The notes under the pieces: generated by a model
The model's database searches: none
Told to the model about the DNA's origin: nothing
The model's input: only the letters and a program-made list of their open reading frames with translations
Made by a program: the position numbers and the translations under genes
DNA from: Terriglobales bacterium
GTDB taxonomy: Bacteria; Acidobacteriota; Terriglobia; Terriglobales; Acidobacteriaceae
Assembly (NCBI GenBank): GCA_035483835.1
Contig: DATHPO010000090.1
Coordinates: 1,924-65,923 of the forward strand
Length of the DNA stretch: 64,000 nt
Direction: 5' to 3'
Part shown: positions 16,779 through 61,641 of the stretch, piece after piece
How the letters are laid out: each line of letters opens with the position of its first letter
Numbering within the stretch: position 1 is the stretch's first letter

Positions 16779-16823
16779 ATGCTAGCAATCTAAGTCCTAC
16801 TCCACACCTGGGGATTAGGCAGT
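16779..16823 (-). promoter_or_regulatory. right-half copy of the palindrome motif (..TAATCCCCAG) with GTGTGG-N17-TAGCAT
   Basis: Only the promoter-proximal half TCCCCAG is conserved. It lies about 130 nt upstream of the 16650 start. Confidence 0.3.
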
Positions 16824-16910
16824 GCCTTTGTGTCACAAGCACCCAACAACGGAGAAAGTTTTCTCAATCAGCTTGTTCTGTCTCGTACCTATTGAGCTAG
16901 TCTCTAAGCA

Positions 16911-17561
16911 TCAATATGCGCTAATCAGGTGGTTCTTGACCGCGTATTGCACCAGGTCGGCATCGTTCTTCGCATGTAATATTTCCCGGATCCGGAGCTT
17001 ATGAAAAGCAACCGTGGAAGTTGCAAGGTTCAACACACGCGCGACTTCCTTCATCGACTTTCCTTCGCTCACCAACTGCAAAACCTCGCGCTGCCGTTCG
17101 CTGAGTTGCTGCCCTTCATCGACAGATGCTTTGTCCTGGCGCAACAAAACATCGACGGTTTCTTTGACGATTGCTGGGGAGAGATAGAACTTGCCATTCA
17201 GAACCTCCCGCACGGCTAGTATGAGATCCGACGCTGAACAACTCTTCAGCACATACCCTGAGGCTCCGCGTCGGAAAGCCTCGGCGGCCAACGCAGGATC
17301 TGTATTCATCGTCAAGAACACGAACTTTACCGAACCGAGCAGTTCCTTCACCTGACATGCGGCGTCGAGACCGTTCAAGAGCGGCATGCCGACGTCCACA
17401 ATAATCAGCTGGGGCTTCAGAGTGGCAGCAATTCGTACGAGTGCACGCCCGTTATTCACCGTAGCGACCACATCGAATTCCGGCTCGAGCAGCTTTTTGC
17501 ATACATCGGCCACGAACGTGTGGTCGTCAGCGATCATGATTTGAGAACGATTCCCCGCCAT
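16911..17561 (-). CDS. NarL/LuxR-family response regulator
   Basis: Receiver (IMIADDH...DVGMPLLNG) plus C-terminal LuxR HTH (SERQREVLQLVSEGKSMKEVA). ATG at 17561 follows GAGG. Confidence 0.85.
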   Translation of the reverse strand: MAGNRSQIMIADDHTFVADVCKKLLEPEFDVVATVNNGRALVRIAATLKPQLIIVDVGMPLLNGLDAACQVKELLGSVKFVFLTMNTDPALAAEAFRRGASGYVLKSCSASDLILAVREVLNGKFYLSPAIVKETVDVLLRQDKASVDEGQQLSERQREVLQLVSEGKSMKEVARVLNLATSTVAFHKLRIREILHAKNDADLVQYAVKNHLISAY

Positions 17562-17706
17562 TTGTGCCTCATCCGCTTTCGTGGAGCCTCGATCAAGTGT
17601 GCAATATAACTCTGGACCTATTGCCACTGTCGCTACCGACATTAGCCCGCGCTACCTTCGGGCAGAAAGTAGCGCGTGAGCACCGAAGCCGCCTGCCACT
17701 GGAAAC

Positions 17707-18642
17707 CTAGCTGCCGGCGATGCCCTTGTTGACCAGGACCTTGACTTCAACCCGACGATTCTCGGCCCGCCCTGCCTTGGTCTCGTTCGACGCCGCAGAT
17801 CCGTATTCGCCCATCGCGCCCGGCGCCACGATATGCCGTACCGGTATGTTCCCCTGCTGGACCAGGTAATTGATCACCGCTTGGGCACGATTTTCGCTCA
17901 GTTCCGTGTTCATCGCAGCGCTGCCTGTCGAATCGGTATAGCCCGTCACTTCGATGATGTATCCAGTCAGTCCGGTTGCGGATTGCGCCAACTTACTGAG
18001 CTCTTCCTTGTCCTTCGCGGAGACACTCGAACTGCCGACATTGAAGTTCACCGTGGCTTGGCCCTTCACGTCATACTCGCTTAACGCGGTAAAGCGATTC
18101 GTGTTCTCCTCGATATCCTTCATGTTCTGGGCAATCTTCTGTTGGTTGGCCGCGATGTTCTGTTGGTTGGTGTCGATCTCCTGCTTTTGGGACGCCAGTT
18201 GCACCTTGTTCGACGCGATATTCTTCTGGTTGGCCGCGATCGCCTGCACATTGGCCTGCACTTGTTGTGCGGTGGGATGCAAGCCGGCCTGAATCATTTC
18301 GGCGGTTTCCAGATCGTCACCATCGGTGGTGATGGTATTTGCTACAACCCGGCCCTGGCCGTCGGAGGTTCCTTTCACCTCGACCTTGAGCCCGGGAATC
18401 AGCACCACGCTGGACAAGTGCTGTTTATCCAGACCAAAGAGGCCCTTGTCATCTTTCGTTACCGTGTCATCAGTGAGGACCACGGTCACGCTTCCCTGAC
18501 CGGAGTTCACGATCAACGTTTCTCCAGTCCGAGCAGTGATCATTCCTTTGACTTCGGTTTTGTCGTCGCTGGCCAATAGGACAGATGCGGATGCCAGAAA
18601 AAGCAGCGCCGTGAGACTCACTACAATTGTTCGTCGATTCAT
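17707..18642 (-). CDS. OmpA-family protein with signal peptide, beta-rich N-domain, heptad coiled coil and C-terminal OmpA peptidoglycan-binding domain
   Basis: ATG at 18642 follows AAGGAG. C-terminus reads TGYTDSTGSAAMNTELSENRAQAV...NRRVEVKV. Confidence 0.85.
   Translation of the reverse strand: MNRRTIVVSLTALLFLASASVLLASDDKTEVKGMITARTGETLIVNSGQGSVTVVLTDDTVTKDDKGLFGLDKQHLSSVVLIPGLKVEVKGTSDGQGRVVANTITTDGDDLETAEMIQAGLHPTAQQVQANVQAIAANQKNIASNKVQLASQKQEIDTNQQNIAANQQKIAQNMKDIEENTNRFTALSEYDVKGQATVNFNVGSSSVSAKDKEELSKLAQSATGLTGYIIEVTGYTDSTGSAAMNTELSENRAQAVINYLVQQGNIPVRHIVAPGAMGEYGSAASNETKAGRAENRRVEVKVLVNKGIAGS
18136..18241 (-). repeat. imperfect 21-bp (heptad) tandem repeats encoding the NQQNIAA-type coiled coil of the OmpA-family protein
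   Basis: ttctgttggttggccgcgatg / ttctgttggttggtgtcgatc / ttcttctggttggccgcgatc recur in phase. Confidence 0.5.
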
Positions 18643-18716
18643 CGGTATCTCCTTTATCGCAGTTCTTGAAGTCCAGACAAAAATGTCTGCAGCTAATGCC
18701 TGGTTTCTGAGACCGA

Positions 18717-18761
18717 ACCTTAGGTCTGATGCAATGTCCGCACAACTAGGGAAATCCCTAA
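18717..18761 (-). promoter_or_regulatory. palindrome motif TTAGGGATTTCCCTAG + TTGTGC-N17-TAAGGT, upstream of ompA-like gene
   Basis: Read on the minus strand. The predicted TSS leaves a leader of about 68 nt containing the RBS. Confidence 0.5.
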
Positions 18762-18798
18762 AAGAGCCGGAAGAAGGTCCAGCGACCAAGTTGCCCAA

Positions 18799-18843
18799 CT
18801 AGGGATTTCCCCAGTTGCGGAACCAGGGGTGTAACGTCACAAT
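18799..18843 (+). promoter_or_regulatory. palindrome motif CTAGGGATTTCCCCAG + TTGCGG-N17-CACAAT, upstream of yceI-like gene
   Basis: Divergent from the 18717-18761 copy. The predicted TSS is about 22 nt before the ATG at 18872, upstream of the GGAGAG RBS. Confidence 0.5.
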
Positions 18844-19549: not shown

Positions 19550-20230
19550 ATGAAGCTGGCGCCTAGCGAAACACTGCCAAATCTCGTCATTCCGCTATTT
19601 CTCGGCTTGCTACCATCGGAGGTGGAGAGCGTCTTGGCTCAGGGGCGAGTTTTAGAGGTCGCGCCGAAAACTCGCCTTTGTACTGAGGGCGATACGGCGG
19701 AACACCTCTTCGTCGTGCTGCGCGGAAGGGTCAAGTACAGCCGGCTAACAGCCAAGGGAGACGAACTGATCCTTCGGCTGTTCACGCCGGGTGAAACCTT
19801 CGGGCTCGCCACTCTTCTGCCCAACCCACTGAACTACTTAGGCACAGGCGAGGCACATTTTGGTGGTGTGTTGCACGTGTGGCATCACGACGAAATTTCT
19901 CCACTTTCTGATCGCTATCACCAAATCAAGACGAATGGGTTGAGCATTGCTCTTCGCCTGATGGAGACACTGTCTGACAGACACGCCAGTCTGTTCGAAG
20001 GCAACGCGAGTTTTCGAGTGGCGCGGGCTCTGCTTGACGTCGGCCGCCGAAGCGGCGAGATCCATCCTGAAGGAATCGATGTCCACATCACTAACGAACA
20101 ACTGGGATCCTTGGCGGATGTAAGCCGGTTCACTGCCAGCCGCGTGTTAAGCGATTGGAACAGGGCGGGTGTCGTCACCAAGGAACGTGAGACAGTCCGT
20201 ATTCATTCCCCCGAAAGCCTCCTCTCCTGA
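19550..20230 (+). CDS. Crp/Fnr-family transcriptional regulator (no N-terminal Cys cluster)
   Basis: cNMP-binding-like beta-roll (FVVLRGRVKYSRL...GETFG) and a C-terminal HTH (LGSLADVSRFTASRVLSDW). Confidence 0.85.
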   Translation: MKLAPSETLPNLVIPLFLGLLPSEVESVLAQGRVLEVAPKTRLCTEGDTAEHLFVVLRGRVKYSRLTAKGDELILRLFTPGETFGLATLLPNPLNYLGTGEAHFGGVLHVWHHDEISPLSDRYHQIKTNGLSIALRLMETLSDRHASLFEGNASFRVARALLDVGRRSGEIHPEGIDVHITNEQLGSLADVSRFTASRVLSDWNRAGVVTKERETVRIHSPESLLS

Positions 20231-20333: not shown

Positions 20334-20786
20334 ATGGATAGCCCCGATATTAGTTCTTCAATACTTGTGCGCATTCTTCTTGTAGAGGACTTCGAGCCCT
20401 TCCGGATGAAAGTTCGGTGCTTAATTACAAAGCGGGCGGAATTTACGGTCCTCTGCGAGGAGTCTGATGGATTAGCAGCAGTGCAAAAAGCCGAAGAACT
20501 GCGCCCAGACCTGATTCTGATGGATATCGGCCTTCCCTCGATAGATGGAATCGAAGCCGCCCGGAAAATACTCCGTAGCAATCCCCAGGCAAGAATCCTA
20601 TTCTTGACTCAGGAATCTTCTTCTGACGTCGTGAGCGAAGCTTTTAATCTGGGCGCACGAGGTTACATAGTAAAAATGGACGCGAGAAAAGATCTGCTGT
20701 TGGGCATAGATGCTGTCATGAAGGGCGAGAAATTCGTCAGTGCTAGTTTGAAGAGGCCTGGCTCTCCGAGCTTTCACGATGCGTAA
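20334..20786 (+). CDS. single-domain response regulator (receiver only)
   Basis: ILLVEDFEPF...DLILMDIGLPSIDG...GYIVK. No output domain. GGGAGG RBS. Confidence 0.85.
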   Translation: MDSPDISSSILVRILLVEDFEPFRMKVRCLITKRAEFTVLCEESDGLAAVQKAEELRPDLILMDIGLPSIDGIEAARKILRSNPQARILFLTQESSSDVVSEAFNLGARGYIVKMDARKDLLLGIDAVMKGEKFVSASLKRPGSPSFHDA

Positions 20787-20890: not shown

Positions 20891-20935
20891 CTAGGGATTT
20901 CCCTAGTTGCCCGCAGAACAAACCTGACCTACGTT
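20891..20935 (+). promoter_or_regulatory. palindrome motif CTAGGGATTTCCCTAG + TTGCCC-N17-TACGTT, upstream of yidE/ybjL-like gene
   Basis: Perfect 16-mer. The predicted leader to the ATG at 21153 is about 210 nt. Confidence 0.5.
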
Positions 20936-21152
20936 AGTTCCTGGAAACTTGGCTTCAGCCGCGCAGACATCTTTTTCGAAAAAGTGCTGAGCAGAGCTGA
21001 TCCTTGAAAACGGCATTTCCCGTTGCGTTCCGGAAACTGGTTCCCGACCGGAGTTACACGCGCGAAGGCCAGCGCTTTTCACGGCACTATTACTTCAACC
21101 ATCAGACTCTCGGGTCGGCGGAGTCTACAGTTCGTCAATTCGGAGAGAGCGC

Positions 21153-22832
21153 ATGATTGCGAGTCTTGTCGCGTCGCTAAGACAACATCCTGAGCTCGCA
21201 GTCTTCCTGACGCTTGCGCTCGGATTCCTGCTGGGGCGTGTGCGGGTCGGAACCTTCAAGCTTGGAAATGTCGTCGGCACGCTGCTTGCGGGAGTCATCA
21301 TTGGCCAACTAGCCATCAGGGTTCATCCGCTCGTCGAGATTGTGTTTTTCGATCTGTTCCTCTTCGCGACCGGTTACAAGGTGGGTCCGCAATTCTTCCG
21401 TGGGCTCAAGAAGAACGCGGTGCCGCAACTCTCGCTGACCGTGGTCTTGTGTGTGACCAGCCTCGTGGTGACGGTCGTGGCGGCGAAGGCGCTCGGGTAT
21501 GACTGCGGCACCGCTGCCGGCCTCATGGCTGGCGCCTTCACTGAGAGTACGGTCATCGGCACGGCGGGTGATACGATTGCCCGGCTTAATCTGCCAGATG
21601 CCGAAAAGCAGAGGCTGCTGAACAACATCCCTGTCGCGTACGCGGTGAGCTATCTCGTTGGGACGGGCTTCGTAGTCTGGTTTCTCTCGAGTCTCGCGCC
21701 GAGGCTGCTCGGGGTCGACCTCAAAGAGGAAAGCAAGAAGCTGGAAGCGAAGATGTCCGCGATCCCCACCGAAGAGTCTGGCAGGCGTTCGGGCTACCGC
21801 GAATGGGACCTCCGGGCGTATCGGCTTGCCGACGTTTTTGTCAGTCGTCGGATCGCCGATCTGGAGAAGTCCTTTGTTCCGGAGCGCGTGTTTATTGAGC
21901 GAATCCGCCGCGACTCCAAGTGTGTCGAGGCGACTCCCGATACGGTGCTGCAAGCCGGGGACGTCGTTGTCGTTGTGGCCCGTCGCCACGTGCTGCTCAG
22001 CGGGGGCTCGGCGATTGGTGTAGAGCTCGAGGATCGCGAGCTGCTGGACTTCCCTGTGACCACGGCTGATGTCGTCGTCACTAACCGTGCTGTTGTGGAC
22101 GAGAGGCTTCCAGTACTTGCCGAGCAGGTCGGCCGCGGCGTTGCCCTCCAGAAGCTCGTCCGAGGTGGGGAAGAAATCCCATTCACTTTGGAAACGACCG
22201 TGCAGCGCGGCGACCTCCTGCGGATCGTCGGCGCCACAAAGCATGTGGAGCGCGTAGGCAAGATCCTCGGCTACATAGAGCGGCCATCGAGCGAGACGGA
22301 TGTTGTCTTCGTCGGCCTTGGTATCTTCGTGGGAGGGTTGGTCGGCTTGCTCTCCGTCAGTGTAGGTGGTGTGCCGCTCAGCCTCACGGCCAGCGGCGGT
22401 GCGCTGATCATGGGTCTCGTCTTCGGGTGGCTGCGATCCGTCCGCCCAACCTTCGGTCGTATCCCCGAGCCAGCACTGTGGGTCTTCGACACCATCGGCC
22501 TCGCGGTCTTCATCGGCGTCGTTGGCTTGAACGCCGGGCCCGGCTTCATCACGGGTCTGCGCGTCACGGGGCCAAGCCTTCTCCTGGTGGGTTTCCTCGT
22601 CGCCTTGACGCCCCACGTGGTCGCGGTTTTCTTCGGGCGCTACGTGTTGAATATAAACCCGGTGATTCTCCTCGGAGCGTGCGCGGGCGCTGGAACGGCA
22701 ACGGCGGCGCTGCGGGCGGTTCAGGATGAATCCGCGAGCAAGCTACCGGCACTGGGATACACGGTGCCGTATGCGGTCGGCAACATCCTGCTGACCGCAT
22801 GGGGCCCAATTATCGTGATATTGACCAGATAG
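21153..22832 (+). CDS. YidE/YbjL-family putative transporter (two membrane halves flanking two TrkA-C/RCK_C domains)
   Basis: 559 aa. The N- and C-terminal hydrophobic halves are separated by two about 80-aa soluble repeats (VLQAGDVVVVVA.., VQRGDLLRIVG..). Confidence 0.8.
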   Translation: MIASLVASLRQHPELAVFLTLALGFLLGRVRVGTFKLGNVVGTLLAGVIIGQLAIRVHPLVEIVFFDLFLFATGYKVGPQFFRGLKKNAVPQLSLTVVLCVTSLVVTVVAAKALGYDCGTAAGLMAGAFTESTVIGTAGDTIARLNLPDAEKQRLLNNIPVAYAVSYLVGTGFVVWFLSSLAPRLLGVDLKEESKKLEAKMSAIPTEESGRRSGYREWDLRAYRLADVFVSRRIADLEKSFVPERVFIERIRRDSKCVEATPDTVLQAGDVVVVVARRHVLLSGGSAIGVELEDRELLDFPVTTADVVVTNRAVVDERLPVLAEQVGRGVALQKLVRGGEEIPFTLETTVQRGDLLRIVGATKHVERVGKILGYIERPSSETDVVFVGLGIFVGGLVGLLSVSVGGVPLSLTASGGALIMGLVFGWLRSVRPTFGRIPEPALWVFDTIGLAVFIGVVGLNAGPGFITGLRVTGPSLLLVGFLVALTPHVVAVFFGRYVLNINPVILLGACAGAGTATAALRAVQDESASKLPALGYTVPYAVGNILLTAWGPIIVILTR

Positions 22833-22863: not shown

Positions 22864-23256
22864 ATGCGCCGATTCAAAAGTTTGTGGTTCGCTATTCTCT
22901 TCCTGAGCCTATTTACACTCTGTGGCTGTCAGGATCTTGTTCCGCATGATACCTCTAGCCTATTCATCCCCAGGTTCCAAAGGTCTGAGATTTTTGGTTT
23001 TGTAGCCGGCCTTGGAACGACTTTTGCCGCTGTACCCGACTTGGTCGCTATGCTCAGGCGTCGGTCCAGCGCTGGAATGAACCCGAGGATGGCCGCAATC
23101 ATGGGGGTCTTTCAGATCCTGTGGGTTTACTACGGCTTGTTGATTGCGTCGCGGCCCGTAATCGCATGGAACGTGATTGCAGTCTTGATCAATTTTCTTA
23201 GCGTGGGTGCGTACCGTTACTTCGTTCGCAAGGAAAAAAGGCAAGCAACAACGTAA
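22864..23256 (+). CDS. small membrane protein, possibly PQ-loop/SemiSWEET-like, with lipoprotein-type signal
   Basis: LFTLCGC lipobox-like start followed by three helices. The family call is tentative. Confidence 0.4.
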   Translation: MRRFKSLWFAILFLSLFTLCGCQDLVPHDTSSLFIPRFQRSEIFGFVAGLGTTFAAVPDLVAMLRRRSSAGMNPRMAAIMGVFQILWVYYGLLIASRPVIAWNVIAVLINFLSVGAYRYFVRKEKRQATT

Positions 23257-26801: not shown

Positions 26802-26969
26802 CTCTGGCCTCCGCCGCGACGGCAACGTGCTTCCCAAGCTTAATGTTCCCACGTGTCCGCGGGCGTGTTGCCGGGTATTATATGCTGCGGGTTCAAAGTG
26901 TGTTGGGAGTCGCTAGCCAGGGCATTGGGCGCTAGGGCGTTTTGGGCGAGAAGTTCCTCTGGAGGTCTC

Positions 26970-29261: not shown

Positions 29262-29295
29262 TCCTGCGGACTGTTGTGCGCGGTCCGACATAATC

Positions 29296-29949: not shown

Positions 29950-30180
29950 TTCATGATATTGAAGCCTACCTGTCAATTCTGACAGTTGCGCAAACAAACT
30001 CAAGGCAGCTAGCGTTGACGCCGAACTGCTGATCGGGGCGTTAAACGACCCAGTCTCACCCCCGAAAAGCGGAAGTAAAAGCAAAGGAGGCGCCACTTGC
30101 TTACATCCGCCAAGAGTTGTGCATCACCGACGCAGTCCCCGTATCCCGAGATGTCCGCAGGCTGTAAACCAGGAGCGAAC

Positions 30181-30891: not shown

Positions 30892-30936
30892 TTAGGGGTT
30901 TCCCCAGTTGCGGAGACCGCGTGGACCGCTTAGCCT
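30892..30936 (+). promoter_or_regulatory. palindrome motif TTAGGGGTTTCCCCAG + TTGCGG-N17-TAGCCT, upstream of receiver-only gene
   Basis: Lies in the 250-nt gap between the second LuxR regulator and the HTH-less receiver. Confidence 0.5.
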
Positions 30937-31121
30937 TGCTCCGGTAAAGAAGGGCCACCGAGATTTCGGATGGAATGGTCTGAACAGGTGGTAACTGAGT
31001 TCGCGGCGCGTAGTCAATGCTCCGCGGGATCTGGGTTGGTATCCAGTGCAGCCATAATTCGTTGGCTTGCAGAGCCGTGGGAATCGCATTCTACCGTGCT
31101 GGAAATTTCTCCCTGCGGTGT

Positions 31122-37896: not shown

Positions 37897-37924
37897 GGAG
37901 GTGTGATGCGGTTTTTCTTTTGCC

Positions 37925-46925: not shown

Positions 46926-46974
46926 TGTGGCTAGGTTTTGCTCCGCGGATTTTCTCCGGTCGTTACCTGAAACA

Positions 46975-52185: not shown

Positions 52186-52230
52186 TTTGTACTGCAGCGC
52201 AGAGCGCACCGCCACTAGGGAAACCCCTAA
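52186..52230 (-). promoter_or_regulatory. palindrome motif TTAGGGGTTTCCCTAG + TGGCGG-N17-TACAAA, upstream of the DUF3300 gene
   Basis: Divergent partner of the 52304 copy. Confidence 0.45.
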
Positions 52231-52303: not shown

Positions 52304-52349
52304 CTAGTGATTTCCCCAGTTGAGAGGTATGGGGGCCAAGACGTAGCAT
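52304..52349 (+). promoter_or_regulatory. palindrome motif CTAGTGATTTCCCCAG + TTGAGA-N18-TAGCAT, upstream of 52511 OMP gene
   Basis: One mismatch in the left half. The predicted leader is about 155 nt. Confidence 0.45.
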
Positions 52350-52510: not shown

Positions 52511-53164
52511 ATGAAAACCACGTCGCATTCCGCGATGCTCGCGCTAGTCTTTGTTCTCGCTGGCCAAGTCTTGGCCCAGACTCCGACACGCCAGACGCCG
52601 AGCGCAGATGACGCCGATGCAAATCAGTGGGAGTTCTCCCTAGCGACATCTGGCTATCTGGTTCCAGATGACCAATCTTACGGTTCTCCGATCTTTACCG
52701 CCGATCATCAATGGCTTCACTTTGAAGCCCGTTACAACGAGGAGTATCTACAGACTGGATCATTGTGGGCGGGCTATAACTTCAGCATCGGTCACAAGCT
52801 CGTGTTCGAAGCCACGCCAATGTTCGGCGTCGTGTTTGGAAGTACGACAGGGGTTGCGCCAGGCTACGAACTCTCGCTCACCTACAAGCGGGTTGAGCTT
52901 TCGGCTCAGGGAGAGTACGTATTTAATGCGGACGATCGGAAGGCCAGCTATTTCTACACCTGGGACGAACTGGTCTACTCGCCGACGGACTGGTTCCACG
53001 CCGGTCTCGTGTCCCAACGAACCAGAGACTACCACACCAATCTCAACGTGCAGCGTGGATTCTCAGTCGGGGTTACACACAAGAAAGTGGATTTCACGAC
53101 CTTTGTATTCGATGCCGGCTGGACCGACCCCACGGTGGTCCTCGCCCTTACCTTCAGGTTTTGA
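52511..53164 (+). CDS. small outer-membrane beta-barrel protein (unknown family)
   Basis: Signal peptide (..VLAGQVLAQ), alternating strands, C-terminal ..LALTFRF aromatic terminus. Confidence 0.5.
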   Translation: MKTTSHSAMLALVFVLAGQVLAQTPTRQTPSADDADANQWEFSLATSGYLVPDDQSYGSPIFTADHQWLHFEARYNEEYLQTGSLWAGYNFSIGHKLVFEATPMFGVVFGSTTGVAPGYELSLTYKRVELSAQGEYVFNADDRKASYFYTWDELVYSPTDWFHAGLVSQRTRDYHTNLNVQRGFSVGVTHKKVDFTTFVFDAGWTDPTVVLALTFRF

Positions 53165-53185: not shown

Positions 53186-53231
53186 CTAGGGGTTTCCCTA
53201 GTCGACCAACTCCAGCTACGAGAATTAGAAT
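53186..53231 (+). promoter_or_regulatory. palindrome motif CTAGGGGTTTCCCTAG + TCGACC-N18-TAGAAT, upstream of 53270 gene
   Basis: The predicted TSS is about 32 nt before the ATG, upstream of the GGAGAAGGAG RBS. Confidence 0.5.
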
Positions 53232-53269: not shown

Positions 53270-53884
53270 ATGCGCACAAATGCAAACAAATCCACCATTC
53301 GCAAATCCATGTACGGCGGATTCCTATTCATCATCCTGCTACTGATAACCACGCTCGCCTTTTCCCAGGATGACAGAAAAATAGAAACCATCGATTCCAC
53401 CGCAATGGGCACCAGCACGCAGATGGGTAGCATAATTGGTGTGAAGGTGACCATCTATCAGTACTCTACGGACGAAGATAGACAACTTCTCGTTGATGCC
53501 TTCAAGAAGGGCCAGAATCAGGGCTTGGTCGATGCACTTAGCAAGATGAAGTCCGTCGGCCGCATCGCCATCACCGGCACAGTGGGCTACGACCTCAGTT
53601 ACATTCGCCTTATCCCCACTCCGACGGGTCGCAAGATACGCTTTGTCACCAACCGATTGATCAGATTCGGCGAGGCCTATTACAACACCCGAACTATGGC
53701 ATACAACTTGACAGTGGGCGAATTCGACATTGTCGATGCTGACACGGATAAAAGCTCCGGTGTTCTTTATCCGGCTTCCCAGCTAATTATTAATAAAGAT
53801 GGGCAGCTGGAGTTCCAACTCAATAGAAATCCCTGGAAGCTTGTCAACATTATCGATTGGCACAAGGCGGGTACGGCCAAGTAG
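53270..53884 (+). CDS. secreted protein of unknown function, AT-rich relative to neighbours
   Basis: TM/signal segment FLFIILLLITTLAFSQ and a strong RBS. No recognisable motif. Confidence 0.45.
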   Translation: MRTNANKSTIRKSMYGGFLFIILLLITTLAFSQDDRKIETIDSTAMGTSTQMGSIIGVKVTIYQYSTDEDRQLLVDAFKKGQNQGLVDALSKMKSVGRIAITGTVGYDLSYIRLIPTPTGRKIRFVTNRLIRFGEAYYNTRTMAYNLTVGEFDIVDADTDKSSGVLYPASQLIINKDGQLEFQLNRNPWKLVNIIDWHKAGTAK

Positions 53885-53977: not shown

Positions 53978-55093
53978 TCACTCGGTGTTCCGTGTGGGAC
54001 CCAGGCCCTGAGCCGTTTCCCACGCCCTCACTTTCTGTCGAGCCTCATCGAAGAGTCGCTCATAGTTCCCCTTCTGCACTTTTTCGCGCGCTTTCTCATC
54101 CAGAAGTTTCCACAACGGCTCATATTCGTAAAAGACCCTCAGGTACTGCTCCTGCGTTGATGGCGCTACCTCGTCGGTGCCGAAAAGGAAGCGGTCGGGG
54201 TAGCGATTCAGGAGGTCGGCAGTCACACTGGTCGCCTCCGGGCTCGACACCACATACTTGGCCACCTCGTCCCAGGAAATATCAAAGTAGATATGACTGA
54301 ACTGTGGGTCGGCCAGTATCTCTGCCAACTGAGCGGCGTGGTTCTTTATCGGTCGAACCACCCTGCCCATGCCAGTGTGGGCCCAGATGATGGTCGTGTG
54401 GGGGTGCCTCCTGAAAAGGGCTTTCATCTGATCCAGGTAAACCGGCGGCGATCCTTCCTTCGCGAAAGGCACATCCATATCGCTGTGTAGCAACACGACC
54501 AGTCCGACCGTCTGGGCAAAATCGAGAATCCGATCGAGCGCCGGGTTTTGCAGACTCGCAACTTCGCCCGCCACTTTGGCCGATACAAACTCCTTGTGAA
54601 TCGTAAACTCGCCGATGCCCGAGAACACGCTCGGAAAAGTCTGAAGCACCCGACGAATGTGATCGGCGGCGTACATGTCAGCCGGATTGAAGCCGGTGAT
54701 CATGGGGTCAAAACGCGCCCGCTGTTCCTTCGGCAGCGATCGGTATGCCATCGCAATGTATGCGTCGGTGAAGGAGTAGTAATAGAGTGGTGCGTCCGTC
54801 TGTAGGTAGTAGGTTGGGGCAAAGTCCCCAGAATTCTGGTAGGACCATTCCTGTTGAAGAGGAATCCCAAATAGCGCCACGCGTCCGACTTTAGTGCCCA
54901 TGATCTTCAGAAAGTCATGAATATCCGTGCCTTCCTGAATGTAATTGGTCAAATGGAAGTGAACATCGTTCAGCTCGGGTTGATCTGGTTGGGCCTGTGC
55001 AGCTGCAAGACTGCACCATAGCATTAAAGAAATGACCGAGCCGGAAACGAATCTCATCATTCTGGGACGGCGAAACTGAGAGTGATGTTTCAT
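53978..55093 (-). CDS. amidohydrolase-2 (TIM-barrel metal hydrolase) family protein with signal peptide
   Basis: DVHFHL near the N-terminus, LLHSDMD, IWAHTGMG and FGTD motifs. Signal ..CSLAAAQAQ. Confidence 0.65.
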   Translation of the reverse strand: MKHHSQFRRPRMMRFVSGSVISLMLWCSLAAAQAQPDQPELNDVHFHLTNYIQEGTDIHDFLKIMGTKVGRVALFGIPLQQEWSYQNSGDFAPTYYLQTDAPLYYYSFTDAYIAMAYRSLPKEQRARFDPMITGFNPADMYAADHIRRVLQTFPSVFSGIGEFTIHKEFVSAKVAGEVASLQNPALDRILDFAQTVGLVVLLHSDMDVPFAKEGSPPVYLDQMKALFRRHPHTTIIWAHTGMGRVVRPIKNHAAQLAEILADPQFSHIYFDISWDEVAKYVVSSPEATSVTADLLNRYPDRFLFGTDEVAPSTQEQYLRVFYEYEPLWKLLDEKAREKVQKGNYERLFDEARQKVRAWETAQGLGPTRNTE

Positions 55094-55172: not shown

Positions 55173-56750
55173 TCAGAAAGCTAACTCGAGAGTGGAAGCA
55201 AAGACCGGTCCGGTTCCTCCGAGCGCGAAGGGAACGGCGGTATAGCCCACGGGAGATCTGTACAGGTAAAGGAATTCATTGTTCCACCGGATGACTTTGT
55301 TGTGATAGGGAAAATAGTTGAGCCCGGCCCGAAAGTCCCAAGGATTGCCATACTTTGCCCGGTACGCGTCCAGCGCGGCAGCGTTGCCGGTGAGTGTCGA
55401 TCCTCCGAGATAAACCTGCAAAGTCTTAGGCAGAACCATCGCCGAAGTTTGCAATTGGAAGCCGTGAGAGAAGACCGTGGGAAGTCCGGTCGTGCCGAGT
55501 CCGTGAAAATCATCGAGCCAGCGCAAAAAGTACTCCCCATCCAACGAAAACCCGTGGTACTTGACGCCGCCATCAAACGCGGCCATCTTGTAGGTCACAT
55601 CGTTGACGGTAATGCCGGGACCGAGAAGATTGGGTGTGAAGATGACACTCCCATCTTCGAGCCGAATCTGCGTGTTCTCGAATTGGTCACTGTTTGGCTG
55701 TTCCTGCCTGTCCTCATTGCTCCGGGTGAAGTGGCCCGCGAGACGCGTCGCCAATTTTTGATGGTCTTCAAAGTCGCCAAAGCCTTGGCCAAATTCGCCT
55801 GTGCTGGGCATCCAGACGAGCGAGGTAGACACCGTGTTTAACCCATTGTTGAGCTGCGCCGCGCTTACGCCCAGGGTACTCAGGTTGTTGCCGACCATGG
55901 CTATGTAGTCCAGCCGGCTTCCGATTTTGCCCCAGGCCCAAACGCCTGAAGTATAGGAAGGACGAAAGAACTCGTCGGCTATAAGGCGGGTATCGACACC
56001 AAGCCAGAAGGGGAAGTTGCCCTCTACGCTCCGCGTACCCGGCAAGGACCTGATCCCTGCGCCCACATTAAAATGCTTGTCAAAAAGGTAACTCAGGTTG
56101 CCGGCGAGCACTACCTGAGCGCCTAAGCCTTGCGAAGCATTGGAGGACCACGCGTACAGAAAATAGCGAAACTTCGGGTGAAGGATCCACCCGAGGAACT
56201 TTATCTGTACTTTGTTGAGTTGGATATCCTGGCGTTGCTGGACACTCTTGACATTGCCCAATGCGTCTGTAAACGTTGAATCCAGACCTCGTTGGTTCAG
56301 GTAGCGGACGTAGGTGTATATGCTGATACTCAGGTCGCCGTACTCTGTATTGGCCACCTTGTACCCTTGATTGGGCGTGTACGTTCCCCAGGTTTTTTTG
56401 TCTCCCTGATCCGAGTAGATATCCGCGGTCAGCGGTTTCGATTCTTGTGCAGTGTCGGCCTGCGTCGCTGGGCCGGTCTCAGTTGATATCGCGGCTGAGC
56501 CGGACTGTTGCGCAAGCACGCCACGCAGAGATTCGATCTCCGTCATCAGTTCTCGGTTTTGGTTTTCCAGTTGCTTGTTTTGCTCAATCAGCCGGTCAAG
56601 CTTTTTTAATTCGTCCGTCGTGTCTTGCGTACCATGGTTCGGAGGTTCCTGTTGGGGATCTTCGCCTTGGGCCATTCCGTAACTAGCCAACCCAAGGGCG
56701 AGAGCCAACAGTAGTAATCGCGCTCCTATTCTCCGGATAGTGTTTGCCAT
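55173..56750 (-). CDS. outer-membrane porin with N-terminal coiled coil (family tentative)
   Basis: Signal peptide, heptad segment (LKKLDRLIEQNKQLENQNRELMTEIESL), long beta-strand region, terminal ..STLELAF. Confidence 0.55.
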   Translation of the reverse strand: MANTIRRIGARLLLLALALGLASYGMAQGEDPQQEPPNHGTQDTTDELKKLDRLIEQNKQLENQNRELMTEIESLRGVLAQQSGSAAISTETGPATQADTAQESKPLTADIYSDQGDKKTWGTYTPNQGYKVANTEYGDLSISIYTYVRYLNQRGLDSTFTDALGNVKSVQQRQDIQLNKVQIKFLGWILHPKFRYFLYAWSSNASQGLGAQVVLAGNLSYLFDKHFNVGAGIRSLPGTRSVEGNFPFWLGVDTRLIADEFFRPSYTSGVWAWGKIGSRLDYIAMVGNNLSTLGVSAAQLNNGLNTVSTSLVWMPSTGEFGQGFGDFEDHQKLATRLAGHFTRSNEDRQEQPNSDQFENTQIRLEDGSVIFTPNLLGPGITVNDVTYKMAAFDGGVKYHGFSLDGEYFLRWLDDFHGLGTTGLPTVFSHGFQLQTSAMVLPKTLQVYLGGSTLTGNAAALDAYRAKYGNPWDFRAGLNYFPYHNKVIRWNNEFLYLYRSPVGYTAVPFALGGTGPVFASTLELAF

Positions 56751-56791: not shown

Positions 56792-57847
56792 CTATTTCCA
56801 ACCCACCGATGCCGGAGAAAACAGGTTGTAGTGCAGCTTGTCGCTGACGTAGTCGATCACCTCTTGCGCCTTGACGCTGTTTCCAGCGTCATCCAGCGGT
56901 GGTGCAAAGACGACAATTGCTCCTTTTCCAGGGACGATTGCTACAATCCCGCCGCCGACTCCACTCTTCGCAGGGAGTCCCACATCCCACGCCCAACCAC
57001 CAGAACCGTCGTAAAGACCGGCCATCATCATGGTGCTGAGGATGTGAGGAACGTCTTCCGATTTGATCACCTGTTCTCCTGTGGCAGGGTTGATCCCGTT
57101 ATTTGCGAGCGTTGCGCCCATCCGCGCGAGCTGGGTGGCGTTTACGCCAACCGAACACTGCTTGGTGTAGATATCGACCGACTCAAATGGATCAGCGTAA
57201 ATCCGCTCATATTTGGCCAAGAGCATGGAGAGCGCTTTGTTGCCGGTGTTGGTGGCGGCTTCGGATTTGTAGACCTCGTCAATCAACGTCAACTTTTCTC
57301 CGGCCGCGCGGCTGTAGAAATCCAGGATCTTAGTCCATTTTTCATCCGCATCCTTGCCGGAGATCAGGCTAGTTGTGGCGATGGCACCTGCATTAACGAA
57401 AGGGTTGCCGGTGTGTGTCGGCATGTCCACGACCGCCACTGGAGAGTTAAAGGGGCGTCCCGTAGGCTCGGAGCCTATTTTTTGGAAGACCTTCTCGGCT
57501 CCCAGCGCTTCCATTGCAAGCGCCAACGTGTAAACCTTGGAAATCGACTGGATGGAGAATGAATATTTCACGTCCCCCAGTGTGACAACCTGGTTGTCGG
57601 TGGTGACAATCGCGATCCCGAAAAGCTTGGAATCCACTTGTGCGAGATAGGGAATATAATCAGCGTTCTTCCCGCGGGTTTCATTCTTGAACTTGTCATA
57701 GGCCTCTTGAACCACCGCCGCCACGACCTCCCGGCGAGGCGCCACAGGGCTTCGCGATCCTTGTGCCAGCGCCGGTATCGGAAGCAAAGACGGAACAATG
57801 ATTGTTGCGACAAGAAGTAACTTTACAGCCCAGTTCCTATTGAACAT
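56792..57847 (-). CDS. glsA: glutaminase A with signal peptide
   Basis: ADYIPYLAQVD...FSIQSISKVYTLALAME serine-dependent glutaminase core. N-terminal ..LLPIPALAQG. Confidence 0.9.
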   Translation of the reverse strand: MFNRNWAVKLLLVATIIVPSLLPIPALAQGSRSPVAPRREVVAAVVQEAYDKFKNETRGKNADYIPYLAQVDSKLFGIAIVTTDNQVVTLGDVKYSFSIQSISKVYTLALAMEALGAEKVFQKIGSEPTGRPFNSPVAVVDMPTHTGNPFVNAGAIATTSLISGKDADEKWTKILDFYSRAAGEKLTLIDEVYKSEAATNTGNKALSMLLAKYERIYADPFESVDIYTKQCSVGVNATQLARMGATLANNGINPATGEQVIKSEDVPHILSTMMMAGLYDGSGGWAWDVGLPAKSGVGGGIVAIVPGKGAIVVFAPPLDDAGNSVKAQEVIDYVSDKLHYNLFSPASVGWK

Positions 57848-57879: not shown

Positions 57880-59352
57880 TTATAGAGTTGGGGATTTGAA
57901 ACTCTTATCCCAGTCAAACTTGAACGAGAACTGCATCCGATAATCGTTGGCATTGAATCCGTTGCTGAAGTTCACCCGGCGGCCGAACTGAAACTCACCA
58001 CCCATCGTGACCCTTGGGATCGGATGGTAGAGCAGGTTCCCGACCGCGTAGTCACCCTGGTGATAGTCCGACGGAAGCTGTGCGTTTGAGTTCTGAATGT
58101 CAACCAGCGAGTAACCGGCTGAACTGGTGAAGTGCTCGCTCCAGGTGTGATCGATGAATGCCACGACGCCTAACACCGGTAAAGTAACGCCTTTGATGGG
58201 CACGCGCGAGCCCGGAGGATTGTTCTGGATACCGATGTCCACCGGCGCATCGTTCATGTAATTCTCAATGCCGGAGCCGTAAACAAATGCCAGCTTTGCA
58301 ACATTCTTTTTTGACAACTTGAGATTGGAAGTCAGGTTGAAGCCCCAGCCCACAGCACTGCCACCGAGATTGATCGGGTTGCCGCTGGTGTCAACCCACC
58401 CGATTTTCCGAACAATGCCGGCCATCTGTACATAGCCCCAGTCTCTGTCGATCCGCGCATTCCCCGAGAGATCCGGGAAATTGAACCGCGGCCGTATGTT
58501 GCTCAGCTCGATACGGTCGGCATAAACGCCTTGGTCACCGCTGGCGCCGGGTCTTTCCAGGGCAATCGTGACGCCGCCTCTCTTGCTTCGGATCGGCATC
58601 CAACGAATCTGCACATTGCGGAAGAACACCATCCCGTTCGGGCCCCAGTACTCCAGCGTGTTCGGGAAGACGCCTATGTCCATGAACGGGCTCCAGGTCT
58701 GTCCCGCTCCAAACTGGCCCAGCTCTCCGTAAGCATGCCGCAGGCGGAAAGTCGTTTGGCCGGCATCAACTCCGGTCCCAAATAGTTCGAATTCGAATAC
58801 CGTGTTCAGATCGCCGTACGGGGTAGGCGTGGAGGACTTCACCCCGAAGCGGGTTTGTCGCACGCTGGCATAGACATTTCCACTCGGCGCAAACTCATTG
58901 TGGAAGGACGGCAACTGGGTGGGACGGACAACGTCGAACCAGTTCGGATTCACCTGCCCGAAGTCATATCCGGAGTCGAGCATCACGAACCCGTAAAAGT
59001 TGACGCTGTTCTGCCGCTCTGTGATTTCACCTTCCAGCGGTACGGTTCCAGCCTGGGGCTGAGCGATAATCGCCTCCGAGGGAACTGCGATCATTGGCTC
59101 CTGCGGGGCAGGCGTCTGTTGTCCTTCGGCCTGGCCTTGCCCAACGAGGGGGGCCGCAGGAGGAGCCGGCGTCCCCTCAAGCGCTTTGATCTCGCCCTTG
59201 ACCTCGGTCATCATCTGATCCAACTGCTGCAGCTTGTTCTTCAGTTGTTCGATATCTGCATTGCGCTGATCCTGGGATTGGGCTGCAGCAGACTGAATCC
59301 AGATGGCGGAAAGAGCGAACAGCAGTAGTGCAATGAAGCTATTTTTTTTCAT
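57880..59352 (-). CDS. outer-membrane porin with N-terminal coiled coil (DcaP-like architecture, tentative)
   Basis: Signal peptide, IEQLKNKLQQLDQMMTEVKGEIKAL heptads, Pro-rich linker, beta-barrel region. Confidence 0.55.
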   Translation of the reverse strand: MKKNSFIALLLFALSAIWIQSAAAQSQDQRNADIEQLKNKLQQLDQMMTEVKGEIKALEGTPAPPAAPLVGQGQAEGQQTPAPQEPMIAVPSEAIIAQPQAGTVPLEGEITERQNSVNFYGFVMLDSGYDFGQVNPNWFDVVRPTQLPSFHNEFAPSGNVYASVRQTRFGVKSSTPTPYGDLNTVFEFELFGTGVDAGQTTFRLRHAYGELGQFGAGQTWSPFMDIGVFPNTLEYWGPNGMVFFRNVQIRWMPIRSKRGGVTIALERPGASGDQGVYADRIELSNIRPRFNFPDLSGNARIDRDWGYVQMAGIVRKIGWVDTSGNPINLGGSAVGWGFNLTSNLKLSKKNVAKLAFVYGSGIENYMNDAPVDIGIQNNPPGSRVPIKGVTLPVLGVVAFIDHTWSEHFTSSAGYSLVDIQNSNAQLPSDYHQGDYAVGNLLYHPIPRVTMGGEFQFGRRVNFSNGFNANDYRMQFSFKFDWDKSFKSPTL

Positions 59353-59418: not shown

Positions 59419-59463
59419 ACTCTTATGCATGAGGAGAGTGGAAGCAATTAGGGAAATCCCTAA
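59419..59463 (-). promoter_or_regulatory. palindrome motif TTAGGGATTTCCCTAA + TTGCTT-N16/17-TAAGAGT, upstream of porin-glsA-porin operon
   Basis: Located about 100 nt upstream of the ATG at 59352. Confidence 0.45.
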
Positions 59464-59627
59464 GTATTGAAACCAAACCTCTGGGCGCTGGCGCCGGTCC
59501 TCGAATGGATTCCAGGACGCGTCAACGTTGTCACGAAAAGTGTCAGATTGCGTTTGTGCTAGTTGGCTTTGGAGGGATACAATCTGGAGCACAAGTTTGC
59601 TCACAAAGGGACGAGGCCCTCGGCGAC

Positions 59628-61517
59628 ATGCTTACCCTCTTCCGTCGCTGCCTTTTGGGGCAGGCTGCGACGAAGAATCCTCGAGTTGTCGGTTATGCCA
59701 TCCGACGGAGTGCGCTAATCCGTGTGGCGCTTCGGTCGGTAAAAATGATTCTCGTCCTCTTCACGTTGTGTGTCCTGTTTCAACCTAGAGCCAATCCTCA
59801 AGTCAAGGAAGTGAAGAGAGTTTTGGTTTTCTACGAATTGGGTCTTTCTTCTCCGGCCGTCACGCTGATTGATCACGAAATGCTGGCGACGCTGGAAGAT
59901 TCACGCTACCAGATCGAGTTATATCGCGAGCACCTCGAGACGACCCTTTTCGACGATGCAGCGGCTCAGGAGTCGTTACGGCAGTGGTATATTCACAAAT
60001 ATCAAGATCACATACCAGACCTGATCATCGCGCTTGGACCTTCGCCACTTCACTTCATGGTCGACGCGCACGAAATTTTTTTTTCAGGCATTCCGATTGT
60101 CTTTGGTGGCACCAGTGAACCACAGGCGGACAACCCAACGCTCGATTCCCACTTCACCGGCTGCTGGGAGTCGTTTGAGCCGGCCAAGACTCTGGACGTG
60201 GCCTTGCGACTCCAGCCTGGCACGAATCACGTAGTGGTGGTCGGCGGGATTTTGTCTTACGACAAACATCTGGAAGCAATTTATCGAGAGCAGCTTCATG
60301 GCTACGAATCCAGCCTGGAGTTTACCTATCTGACTGATCTCGACATGCCCAGCCTGCTCGAGCGATTGAAGCGCCTGCCCCCTCACACGATCGTGCTTTA
60401 CACTCACATCGGCATGGACGCAAAAGGGACCAAGTACGTCAGTGCATCCCAGGCAGGTCCGATGGTTGCTGGCGCCGCGAACGCCCCGGTCTTCGGTCCG
60501 TCGGATGTGGACCTGGGTCACGGGCAGGTCGGAGGCTATCTCCAGAGTTTCGCAATGGAAGGTAAGATCATCGGTGGTATTGCGGTAAGGATTCTCAATG
60601 GGGTAAGGCCCCAGGATGTGCCGATTGTTCGAGGCACAAATGCATACATGTTTGATTGGCGAGCGTTGCGGCGCTGGGGATTCAACGAAAACGATCTTCC
60701 AACCGGTAGCGTGGTGCTTTTCCGTTCGCCGTCGTTCTGGCAGCGCACCAAATGGATGTGGGTCGCTGCGTCACTCGCCACTCTCTTTCTAGGTCTCTGC
60801 GGCTTCTACCTCCGTTTCAGTTGGAGACAGTTGAAGCTGGCGAAAGACCGGCAACTGGGGCTCAGCGGCATGTTGATAACCGCTCAGGAAAAAGAGCGCA
60901 GTCGGCTGGCATCGGAAATCCATGACGATTTTAGTCAGCGTTTAGCGTTACTTGCACTCGGATTGGAGAATGCGGAAGAATCGATCGGCACTTCGCCGGG
61001 AGAGGCTGTCCAACAAGTACACGATCTCCTGAATTCAGCCAGCGAAATCGGCGCTGATCTCCACACGCTTTCGCACCGTCTGCATTCGTCCACGCTGGAG
61101 GCGTTGGGGCTTGTGCCCGGTTTGAGTGCTCTATGCAAGGAATTCGGCAGCCAACAGCGTATTGAAGTTGATTTTCTTCCTGAAGACATCCCTCGTTCCG
61201 TTCATCCAGATGTAGCGTTGTGCTTATTTCGCATCGTGCAGGAAGGTCTTCGTAATTTAAAGAAGCACAGCGGGGCCACCAAAGCACAAGTACGTCTGCG
61301 CAGGAGTGGCAACAAGCTAGTCGTGTCTGTAAACGACGAAGGTTTCGGGTTCGATGCCCGAGAGCTTGGGAAAAAGGAGGGTCTGGGCATCCGCAGCATG
61401 GAAGAGCGCGTTTACTTGTTGGGCGGACGATTCGAGATTCGTTCCAGACCTGGCAGGGGGACTAAGGTCGAAGCTTGGGTTCCCATTCAGCCGAAATCAG
61501 AGCGGGCGGCGGGATGA
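59628..61517 (+). CDS. sensor histidine kinase paralogue: periplasmic ABC-substrate-binding-like domain, TM, HisKA_3, HATPase (no PAS)
   Basis: Collinear with 26970-29261 (KEVKRVLVFYELG.., MFDWRALRRWGF.., H-box SEIHDDFSQRL). The start is uncertain (59628 or 59745). Confidence 0.8.
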   Translation: MLTLFRRCLLGQAATKNPRVVGYAIRRSALIRVALRSVKMILVLFTLCVLFQPRANPQVKEVKRVLVFYELGLSSPAVTLIDHEMLATLEDSRYQIELYREHLETTLFDDAAAQESLRQWYIHKYQDHIPDLIIALGPSPLHFMVDAHEIFFSGIPIVFGGTSEPQADNPTLDSHFTGCWESFEPAKTLDVALRLQPGTNHVVVVGGILSYDKHLEAIYREQLHGYESSLEFTYLTDLDMPSLLERLKRLPPHTIVLYTHIGMDAKGTKYVSASQAGPMVAGAANAPVFGPSDVDLGHGQVGGYLQSFAMEGKIIGGIAVRILNGVRPQDVPIVRGTNAYMFDWRALRRWGFNENDLPTGSVVLFRSPSFWQRTKWMWVAASLATLFLGLCGFYLRFSWRQLKLAKDRQLGLSGMLITAQEKERSRLASEIHDDFSQRLALLALGLENAEESIGTSPGEAVQQVHDLLNSASEIGADLHTLSHRLHSSTLEALGLVPGLSALCKEFGSQQRIEVDFLPEDIPRSVHPDVALCLFRIVQEGLRNLKKHSGATKAQVRLRRSGNKLVVSVNDEGFGFDARELGKKEGLGIRSMEERVYLLGGRFEIRSRPGRGTKVEAWVPIQPKSERAAG

Positions 61518-61596
61518 GCTCGCATCCGATGGATTGCGGCCCTAATCGCCGCAGGTCGAGGGGTCATTCCGAATCTCACCAGCGGGTCTTTGCAGC

Positions 61597-61641
61597 CTAG
61601 GGATTTCCCCAGTAGCAAGACCCCGCGCACTGCCTTAAGAA
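61597..61641 (+). promoter_or_regulatory. palindrome motif CTAGGGATTTCCCCAG + TAGCAA-N17-TAAGAA, upstream of receiver-only gene
   Basis: Occupies the same position relative to kinase and receiver as the 30892 copy. Confidence 0.5.

Follow-up and report, generated by a model that had tools for sequence, protein, structure and literature searches.

What is the 16-bp palindrome that recurs between the genes of a 64,000-nt stretch of DNA from a Terriglobales bacterium (GenBank assembly GCA_035483835.1, contig DATHPO010000090.1, forward-strand positions 1,924 to 65,923), and which protein recognizes it? Below, the palindrome is referred to as the box and the whole 64-kb stretch as the window, with positions counted from its first letter. 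As judged from its sequence context, the box is very likely a transcription-factor site fused to a promoter. The NarL/FixJ-type response regulator encoded at 30097-30867 is a reasonably likely candidate for the factor, and the fuller statement, that the box is the activator site of this regulator, paired with the kinase encoded at 59505-61517, in a class II-like placement, appears likely. We observed the motif, its register with predicted promoters, its conservation in Terriglobia, the target families shared between genomes, and the linkage to the regulator and kinase genes; from these we infer actual binding, activation rather than repression, the transcription starts, and a signal sensed by the kinase.

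The window comes from a bacterial chromosome, has a G+C content of 53-57%, and contains one tRNA-Leu. The box is a 16-bp two-fold symmetric inverted repeat of 7-2-7 format, CTAGGGA-TT-TCCCTAG. Searching the window with YTAGGGNTTTCCCYAG at no more than two mismatches gave 15 distinct sites, against 0.28 expected and a maximum of 2 in dinucleotide-preserving shuffles, which set the chance level. The coordinates and strands of the 15 full palindromes listed in an earlier note on this DNA were thereby exactly reproduced. At three mismatches, two extra matches occurred, both inside genes (14957 and 33410), with a chance level of 0.83; because this search added coding-region matches at chance level only, the list of 15 sites was taken as complete. 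The same note had placed all copies between genes, and after start codons were set by the Shine-Dalgarno sequence, this was true of 15 of the 15 full sites. Furthermore, in all five co-directional intergenic cases in the window (5/5), the box faced the correct gene.

The box was also searched for in 185,579 species genomes using TAGGGATTTCCCYAGTTG. At least 120 stretches were obtained and examined as 8-kb loci, and all counts given below for other genomes rest on the matches listed. In total, 119 of the 120 listed stretches belonged to Acidobacteriota (Terriglobia), including Acidobacteriaceae, Acidoferrales, Sulfotelmatobacter, and Edaphobacter (Edaphobacter sp. HDX4 has the box), and the remaining one came from an archaeon and is a probable chance match. 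Together, the listed loci held 230 relaxed copies. As far as the lineage can be judged from these matches, the box is a strongly conserved, lineage-specific putative regulatory box with a clear candidate regulator.

The bases that follow the box resemble a promoter at a fixed distance. Directly after the box, TTG was found at 10/15 sites in the window and T.G at 13/15, and a TAnnn[T/A] hexamer followed at a 17- to 18-nt spacer in 9/15 full sites and in both of two half copies (described below), with about one expected by chance. In other genomes, the three bases after the box were TTG in 45, TAG in 17, and TGG in 10 of the 91 copies that had not been used as search seed, and no conserved information was found in the flank upstream of the box in these copies; because the upstream flank is not conserved, T.G was regarded as a promoter feature and not as an extension of the palindrome. 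Among 243 non-redundant sites, TAnnnT occurred at offset 23 after the box in 64 and at offset 24 in 19, with only 0-5 at other offsets (background, 1-2 per offset). Thus, a TTG-like -35 abutting the palindrome and a -10 lying 17-18 nt further on, both proposed previously, were recovered in the window and in other genomes alike. An alignment of 11 orthologous or paralogous promoters of stand-alone receiver genes retained only the box, T.G, TAACAT, and the ribosome-binding site.

Placement and orientation were assessed on a crude gene map. The loci in other genomes are 82% coding, yet 182 of their 203 sites (90%) lay between genes, and 166 of 199 sites (83%) faced a gene start, whereas the gene behind the box presented its start in 49%. 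Neither random orientation nor a coding or 3′ placement, the patterns against which the motif had been proposed to be checked, was therefore seen. The asymmetric centre had been noted to point at the adjacent gene start in 15 of 17 copies; overall, it predicted the promoter direction in approximately 80-90% of sites but not in all.

We then considered which protein could bind the box. Among its regulatory genes, the window has three for GerE-type response regulators, two for HisKA_3 kinases, and one for a CRP-like protein, of which the following are relevant:

30097-30867, plus strand: candidate regulator of NarL/FixJ type, receiver plus GerE helix-turn-helix (HTH) domain (Pfam Response_reg and GerE), with helix SEKTVEFHKHHIM conserved in orthologs.
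59505-61517, plus strand: candidate sensor kinase, HisKA_3 and HATPase, with two transmembrane segments around a PF04392-like putative periplasmic domain of about 330 aa.
26853-29949, plus strand: paralogous pair, composed of kinase 26853-29261 (same-type sensor domain plus PAS) and regulator 29251-29949.

Orthologs of the 30097-30867 regulator occurred in 21 of the 120 motif-selected loci with a median identity of 67%, and orthologs of the 59505-61517 kinase occurred in 22, lying directly upstream of the regulator gene in other genomes. The order kinase, regulator, box, stand-alone receiver, box, next gene was found in at least 12 genomes. Supportively, in a reciprocal test, metagenomic loci were fetched by the regulator protein alone (64-92% identity; 75 distinct loci), and a strict forward box was found no more than 250 nt past the regulator stop in 53 of the 75 (median 36 nt). 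In six others, the box lay just upstream of the regulator, so that 59/75 carried it within 250 nt on either side, and further boxes occurred in the surrounding DNA at 0.26 per kb. The regulator is otherwise an unremarkable member of the NarL/FixJ family; its nearest solved relatives are VraR, NarL, StyR, RcsB, FixJ, and DevR, and those of its DNA-binding domain are EL222 and StyR. For regulator, kinase, and receivers alike, NCBIfam yielded no equivalog above threshold, with MctR/MctS scoring best but far below the cut-offs. The sensor domains of kinases 59505-61517 and 26853-29261 are 55% identical and related to PF04392 (ABC substrate-binding); because transmembrane segments flank the PF04392-like domain, the signal of the candidate kinase is probably periplasmic. 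In relatives, kinase 59505-61517 adjoins the regulator, while here the regulator comes after the 26853-29949 pair, and a rearrangement involving the paralogous two-component loci is therefore suggested.

The boxes near the regulator gene vary in some relatives. In one subgroup of regulator orthologs (approximately 70-73% identity; L150, L157, L160, L163, L166, L171, L176, and L179), the box about 40-70 nt past the gene reads TAGGGATTTTCCCAGTAG, with an extra central T. The boxes directly past the regulator read TAGGGATTTTCCCAG in some loci or have an AATT centre, the latter in another subgroup and symmetric; the other boxes in the same loci are canonical.

Based on these data, we propose that a dimeric LuxR/GerE-type HTH activator, the phosphorylated 30097-30867 regulator, would bind CTAGGGA-TT-TCCCTAG, a box that would abut the T.G of a weak -35 followed after 17-18 nt by a TAnnnT -10. 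If the -10 is set at -12 to -7, the box would span -51 to -36 with its centre at -43.5. A short, directional protein site with its dyad near -43/-44, as in class II activators, had been suggested from the window, and the predicted register in other genomes supports it; at the predicted promoters, the box has a fixed position abutting the -35 of a sigma-70-type promoter, as a class II-like site does. Once bound, the dimer would recruit RNA polymerase by contacting sigma region 4, the alpha subunit, or both, and the promoters would be switched on when the periplasmic domain of the kinase senses its signal. Activation by recruitment was proposed from the match of this predicted geometry to DosR at hspX, where a dimer on a box centred at about -43.5, beside a suboptimal -35, is reported to contact sigma R4 and the alpha C-terminal and N-terminal domains (PMC13486717).

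Other proteins and other modes of action were weighed against this proposal. The gene for the CRP/FNR-family protein at 19550-20230 (cNMP-binding and HTH_Crp_2 domains) belongs to the operon that the 18799 box would drive, proteins of this family are classic class II activators, and anaerobic-type genes (pflBA, dcuA/B, and asparaginase) are present in the window. Moreover, TAGGG-N4-CCCTA has the 5-4-5 layout of the FNR site TTGAT-N4-ATCAA. FNR sites are, however, usually positioned at -41.5, whereas the box is centred at about -43.5, and its G/C-rich GGG...CCC arms are typical of LuxR/GerE-type sites. Homologs of the CRP-like protein were found in only 3 of the 120 motif-selected listed loci at about 33% identity, far from the figures for the GerE regulator, and the gene resembles a target more than a regulator. 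A CRP/FNR class II site, which we consider very improbable, was rejected, the CRP-like gene being unlinked to the motif elsewhere. Somewhat less improbable, though still unlikely, is that the box serves as the operator of a repressor or dual regulator, either the same response regulator or another dimeric protein, which keeps the promoters off until a signal arrives. A palindrome in a fixed -35 register would equally fit occlusion of sigma region 4 or of the alpha C-terminal domain, and since TTG is well conserved, the promoters may need no activator. Yet the usual place of a repressor is over the -10 or the start, and the box reaches neither, as all of it (-51 to -36) is upstream of the -35. 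Weak -10 hexamers and a -35 that is not conserved beyond T.G are also characteristic of promoters that depend on an activator, and DosR, which at -43.5 offers the geometry nearest to that of the box, is an activator.

As DNA or RNA, the 16-mer can fold into a 6-bp stem with a 4-nt loop (-8.0 kcal/mol), the 37852 copy was flagged by a simple terminator scan, and the copies at 30892 and 61597 lie just past stop codons, so that a structural hairpin repeat (REP-like, terminator or attenuator, or processing site) had to be considered. The substitution pattern speaks otherwise: the promoter-proximal arm reads CCCCAG for CCCTAG in 88 of 274 sites (32%), the mirrored distal change occurs in 5 (2%), and both occur together in 1, with 1.6 expected; in 87 sites, CCCCAG stands opposite an unchanged TAGGG partner. 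Because no compensatory changes were found, a hairpin role is unlikely. In addition, no T-run follows the stem, the copies face gene starts and not gene ends, the distance to the -10 is fixed, and on the promoter reading transcription would begin downstream of the box, leaving it untranscribed. Rfam at gathering thresholds identified the tRNA as the sole match in the window and nothing for the box. In the main, the tests of orientation, register, and covariation refuted a REP-like or structured-RNA repeat, which we regard as extremely improbable. A general upstream promoter element of Terriglobia, for RNA polymerase itself or an alternative sigma factor, would account for 15 sites per 45 kb, a fixed -35/-10 register, and confinement to one lineage. 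Nevertheless, the initial 16.7 kb, which encode a sigma-54 regulator, a kinase, and transporters, are free of copies, as are many of the window's promoters. The box is also tightly linked to one two-component system, and its two-fold symmetry suggests a dimeric HTH protein and not a contact with sigma or alpha. Given also that the downstream families form a narrow recurring set, the box does not appear to be a general promoter element, and the probability of this explanation is very small.

Several points weigh against the assignment of the box to the 30097-30867 regulator as a class II-like activator. The regulator was assigned by gene linkage only, and the factor could be encoded elsewhere. 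The paralogous regulator 29251-29949 may bind the same box, because it is 58% identical to the candidate and its recognition helix is similar. In the window, 29 kb separate the candidate kinase gene from the regulator gene, an arrangement not shared by most relatives. Among the -10 hexamers, several are poor (CACAAT and AAAGAT), two window sites have no T.G, and approximately 10-20% of sites elsewhere have a -10 on the "wrong" side; moreover, the -43.5 position of the box depends on the predicted -10. The directional ATTT centre is not explained by a symmetric dimer alone. Lastly, the lineage restriction is that of the matches listed (at least 120 stretches).

The sites in the window, their predicted promoter elements, and their putative targets are as follows:

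18746-18761, minus strand: box TTAGGGATTTCCCTAG; predicted -35 TTGTGC (18740-18745) and -10 TAAGGT (18717-18722); targets, OmpA/DUF5666 gene (ATG at about 18642), then GerE response regulator 16911-17642.
18799-18814, plus strand: box CTAGGGATTTCCCCAG; predicted -35 TTGCGG (18815-18820) and weak -10 CACAAT (18838-18843); targets, YceI (ATG 18872), CRP-like 19550-20230, and stand-alone receiver 20334-20786.
20891-20906, plus strand: box CTAGGGATTTCCCTAG; predicted -35 TTGCCC (20907-20912) and -10 TACGTT (20930-20935); 246-nt leader, then targets Asp-Al_Ex permease 21153-22832 and SWEET-like gene 22864-23256.
30892-30907, plus strand: box TTAGGGGTTTCCCCAG, 25 nt 3′ of the candidate regulator stop; predicted -35 TTGCGG (30908-30913) and -10 TAGCCT (30931-30936); targets, stand-alone receiver ORF 31017-31529 and DUF481 gene 31661-32716.
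34299-34314, re-read as minus strand (a deduced orientation): box, CTAGGGATTTACCTAG on the plus strand; predicted GTGTGG (34293-34298), 17 nt, TAACAT (34270-34275); target on the minus strand, Zn-phospholipase C gene, ATG 34241, about 28 nt past TAACAT.
34527-34542, re-read as plus strand: box, CTAGGGAAATCCCTAG on the plus strand; predicted GCTCCG, 18 nt, TATTGT (34567-34572); targets on the plus strand, K+ channel 34817-35077 and AI-2E transporter 35105-36187.
37555-37570, minus strand: box TTAGGGATTTCCCTAG; predicted -35 TTGTGC (37549-37554) and -10 TAAGGT (37526-37531); targets, DUF5666 paralog (ATG at about 37451), then bestrophin-like gene 36234-37013.
37682-37697, plus strand: box TTAGGGTTTTCCCTAG; predicted -35 TTGCCG (37698-37703) and -10 TAGAAA (37721-37726).
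37852-37867, plus strand: box TTAGGGATTTCCCTAG; predicted -35 TTGTTG (37868-37873) and -10 TATAAG (37891-37896); targets, MFS 38056-39387, pta 39397-40353, ackA 40363-41550, pflB 41584-43854, and pflA 43851-44690.
45666-45681, minus strand: box CTAGGGATTTCCCCAG; predicted -35 TTGAGG (45660-45665); target, PPK2 (ATG at about 45616, stop 44798).
52215-52230, minus strand: box TTAGGGGTTTCCCTAG; predicted -35 TGGCGG (52209-52214) and -10 TACAAA (52186-52191); targets, DUF3300 50693-52030, DUF2950 49658-50683, and phosphoketolase 47125-49563.
52304-52319, plus strand: box CTAGTGATTTCCCCAG; predicted -35 TTGAGA (52320-52325), 18 nt, -10 TAGCAT (52344-52349); target, uncharacterised 217-aa protein 52511-53164.
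53186-53201, plus strand: box CTAGGGGTTTCCCTAG; predicted -35 TCGACC (53202-53207), 18 nt, -10 TAGAAT (53226-53231); target, uncharacterised 204-aa protein 53270-53884.
59448-59463, minus strand: box TTAGGGATTTCCCTAA; predicted -35 TTGCTT (59442-59447); targets on the same strand, DcaP-like porin 57880-59352, glutaminase 56792-57847, uncharacterised gene 55173-56750, and amidohydrolase 53978-55093.
61597-61612, plus strand: box CTAGGGATTTCCCCAG, 80 nt 3′ of the kinase stop; predicted -35 TAGCAA (61613-61618) and -10 TAAGAA (61636-61641); target, stand-alone receiver (TTG at about 61724, stop 62119).
16808-16823, minus strand: promoter-proximal half box ACTGCCTAATCCCCAG; predicted GTGTGG (16802-16807), 17 nt, TAGCAT (16779-16784); target, 851-aa protein 14287-16842.
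47004-47019, minus strand: degenerate half box CCGTACTTTGTCCTAG; predicted TTGCTC (46998-47003), 17 nt, TAGGGT (46975-46980); target, 421-aa protein 45738-47003.

The boxes at 34299 and 34527 had been described as a convergent pair of exceptions aiming at genes 285-420 nt away. They are better read as back-to-back promoters for the nearest genes: the 34299 minus-strand arrangement recurs in two other loci (L126 and L129), and no -10 was found for 34527 on the strand originally given. The re-reading of 34527 is weaker than that of 34299. The 37682 box is probably a second, upstream promoter of the fermentation operon, because no ORF precedes the next box at 37852.

The two half copies stood up by their context and not by statistics, because the half-site pattern CCCYAGKTG alone occurs twice in the window (16805 and, inside a gene, 60852), which is about the chance level. 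As to context, the 16808 promoter resembles the 34299 minus-strand promoter over 34 nt, an ortholog of its target gene in another genome (locus L022) bears a full box, and the 47004 half copy is a diverged relative of the 18746/37555 promoter. Aligning 16779-16823 with 34270-34314 (both minus strand) showed about 34 nt alike beyond the box, GTGTGGA..AGG..TAGATTG.TA.CATT.AA; the 851-aa protein has no Pfam domains. Homology between copies had been said to end at about 22 nt, which proved wrong for 18746 and 37555 (both minus strand): these belong to two nearly identical copies of a segment at least 230 nt long (18560-18790 and 37370-37600, minus strand), each of which covers the promoter, a 100-nt leader, and the first approximately 35 codons of a DUF5666 gene. 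One of the two DUF5666 copies is fused to an OmpA domain, and the duplicated leader carries a perfect hairpin, CAGACA-TTTT-TGTCTG, about 30 nt 5′ of the Shine-Dalgarno sequence.

Two other leaders have features of their own. The 246-nt leader of the 20891 promoter (20907-21152, plus strand) contains the palindromic stretch TCTTTTTCGAAAAAGT and gave no Rfam match at gathering thresholds. Directly past the -10 of the 37852 promoter and before MFS-pta-ackA-pflBA lies a 16-codon ORF, MRFFFCQWGEPRRTPV (37906-37956, plus strand), with a strong Shine-Dalgarno sequence GGGAGGTG, which may encode a leader peptide. Elsewhere in the window, tRNA-Leu(CAA) (11179-11265, plus strand) lies in an ORF-poor 1.8-kb stretch with no integrase or other mobile-element gene nearby. 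A genomic island was rejected, as no integrase was found and the G+C content is uniform around tRNA-Leu.

Which genes, then, would the box control? In the window, we infer that it governs approximately 15 promoters and 35 genes. Genes for envelope and transport proteins at boxes are those of the OmpA-like, YceI, DUF3300/DUF2950, DcaP porin, and DUF481 proteins, the AI-2E transporter, and the K+ channel, and the energy genes, typical of oxygen limitation, are MFS-pta-ackA-pflBA, phosphoketolase, and PPK2. Among the listed loci, 83 of the 202 ORFs downstream of boxes have homologs among the window proteins. A Pfam census of 144 downstream ORFs gave Response_reg in 23 (3 with GerE), DUF3300 in 17, Ysc84 in 11, beta-carbonic anhydrase, sortase, and OmpA in 5 each, DcaP in 4, and fumarase/aspartase-type lyase and AI-2E in 3 each. 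Stand-alone receivers are the most conserved putative targets and would probably feed back on the phosphorelay. The flanks of the box cluster carry a DcuA/B C4-dicarboxylate transporter and an asparaginase (within 62139-63991, minus strand) and the glutaminase 56792-57847 (minus strand); as far as the window extends, the DcuA and asparaginase genes are without a box. Along with pflBA, pta-ackA, and phosphoketolase, these DcuA/B, asparaginase, and glutaminase genes lend the region an oxygen-limitation or acid-stress flavour.

More tentatively, and with the doubt outweighing the case for it, the box could mark a master regulon of Terriglobia through which the kinase, with a sensor domain like a periplasmic substrate-binding protein, and its NarL-type regulator switch abundant "aerobic" soil Acidobacteria to a survival state. 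This state would combine fermentation (phosphoketolase, pta-ackA, pyruvate formate-lyase, and PPK2) with a remodelled envelope. The induced stand-alone receivers would buffer this state, and the box would be directional, the ATTT centre and the relaxed promoter-proximal arm telling a symmetric dimer in which direction to fire.

Acidobacteriota are among the most abundant soil phyla, and their gene regulation is almost unstudied. The box gives a sequence-defined putative regulon, with tens of promoters per genome neighbourhood, a candidate regulator/kinase pair, and a clear promoter architecture. It joins envelope proteins of uncharacterised function (DUF3300/DUF2950, Ysc84, and DUF481) with fermentation and polyphosphate genes. 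Once found, the signal would show how oligotrophs regarded as aerobic deal with stress, which may be that of limited oxygen. Furthermore, the box could serve as an inducible promoter part in acidobacterial genetics.

The motif was not recognised as a described one when first noticed, and it was likewise not found in the searchable literature of 8 million full texts (bacterial descriptions) or in Rfam, a negative limited to the libraries available. A sequence-based literature search returned NF-kB and eukaryotic matches plus VqmA and nothing else, and a search of the literature on acidobacterial promoter or regulon motifs and on DUF3300/DUF2950 gave nothing relevant.

Among known systems, DosR/DevR of Mycobacterium tuberculosis is similar in many respects. 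It likewise has a receiver plus GerE-HTH regulator and a HisKA_3-type kinase, a palindrome with GGGA...TCCC arms, and a cluster-rich stress and energy regulon, and the hspX geometry is the one predicted here. The DevR half-site is GGGACT (G4G5G6A7C8T9), the proximal box ends 33-34 bp from the start, and DevR promoters always have at least two tandem boxes (PMC3177182). In contrast, usually one box per promoter is found here, and paired boxes belong to divergent promoters or to tandem promoters 170 nt apart. The Dev box, TTSGGGACTWWAGTCCCSAA, is 20 bp long; compared with its GGGACT-WW-AGTCCC, the GGGA-TT-TCCC of the window has arms 4 bp closer, and the flanks differ. DosS/DosT sense by cytoplasmic GAF-haem domains, whereas the candidate kinase has a predicted periplasmic PF04392-like domain and resembles DevS only weakly, in the HATPase part. 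VraR and NarL are better matches to the regulator than DevR is; the candidate is not a DevR ortholog, and the gene content of the regulon differs. The DosR/DevR dormancy system was thus rejected on box spacing, box number, sensor type, and regulator orthology.

A match in sequence is seen with the site of VqmA, a LuxR-type HTH protein, at PvqmR of Vibrio cholerae, AGGGGGGATTTCCCCCCT (PMC8284805). It shares the identical core GGGATTTCCC with the box, the same arm polarity and spacing (GG-N6-CC), and the asymmetric ATTT centre. However, its arms are G6/C6, as against CTAGGG/CCCTAG here, and VqmA, a one-component, ligand-binding receptor of the PAS-domain type, has one main target, whereas a two-component system with a large regulon is proposed for the box; the two were compared at the level of the HTH family.

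NarL and NarP, which belong to the same protein family as the candidate regulator, bind 16-bp inverted repeats with a C/G-rich heptamer, TACYYMT-NN-AKRRGTA, formally of the same 7-2-7 format as the box. The C-run is on the left in NarL sites, whereas the G-run is on the left here, and the position and arrangement of NarL sites with respect to the promoter vary widely, whereas the box is fused to the -35. In class II promoters of the lux-box (LuxR/TraR) and CRP/FNR types, the palindrome bound by the dimeric activator is centred at about -41.5 to -42.5 and touches or overlaps a weak -35. Lux boxes are 18-20 bp long and differ in sequence from the box, and CRP/FNR proteins have a different fold. 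Mechanistically, no new principle is seen, and the box is a further case of a well-known design.

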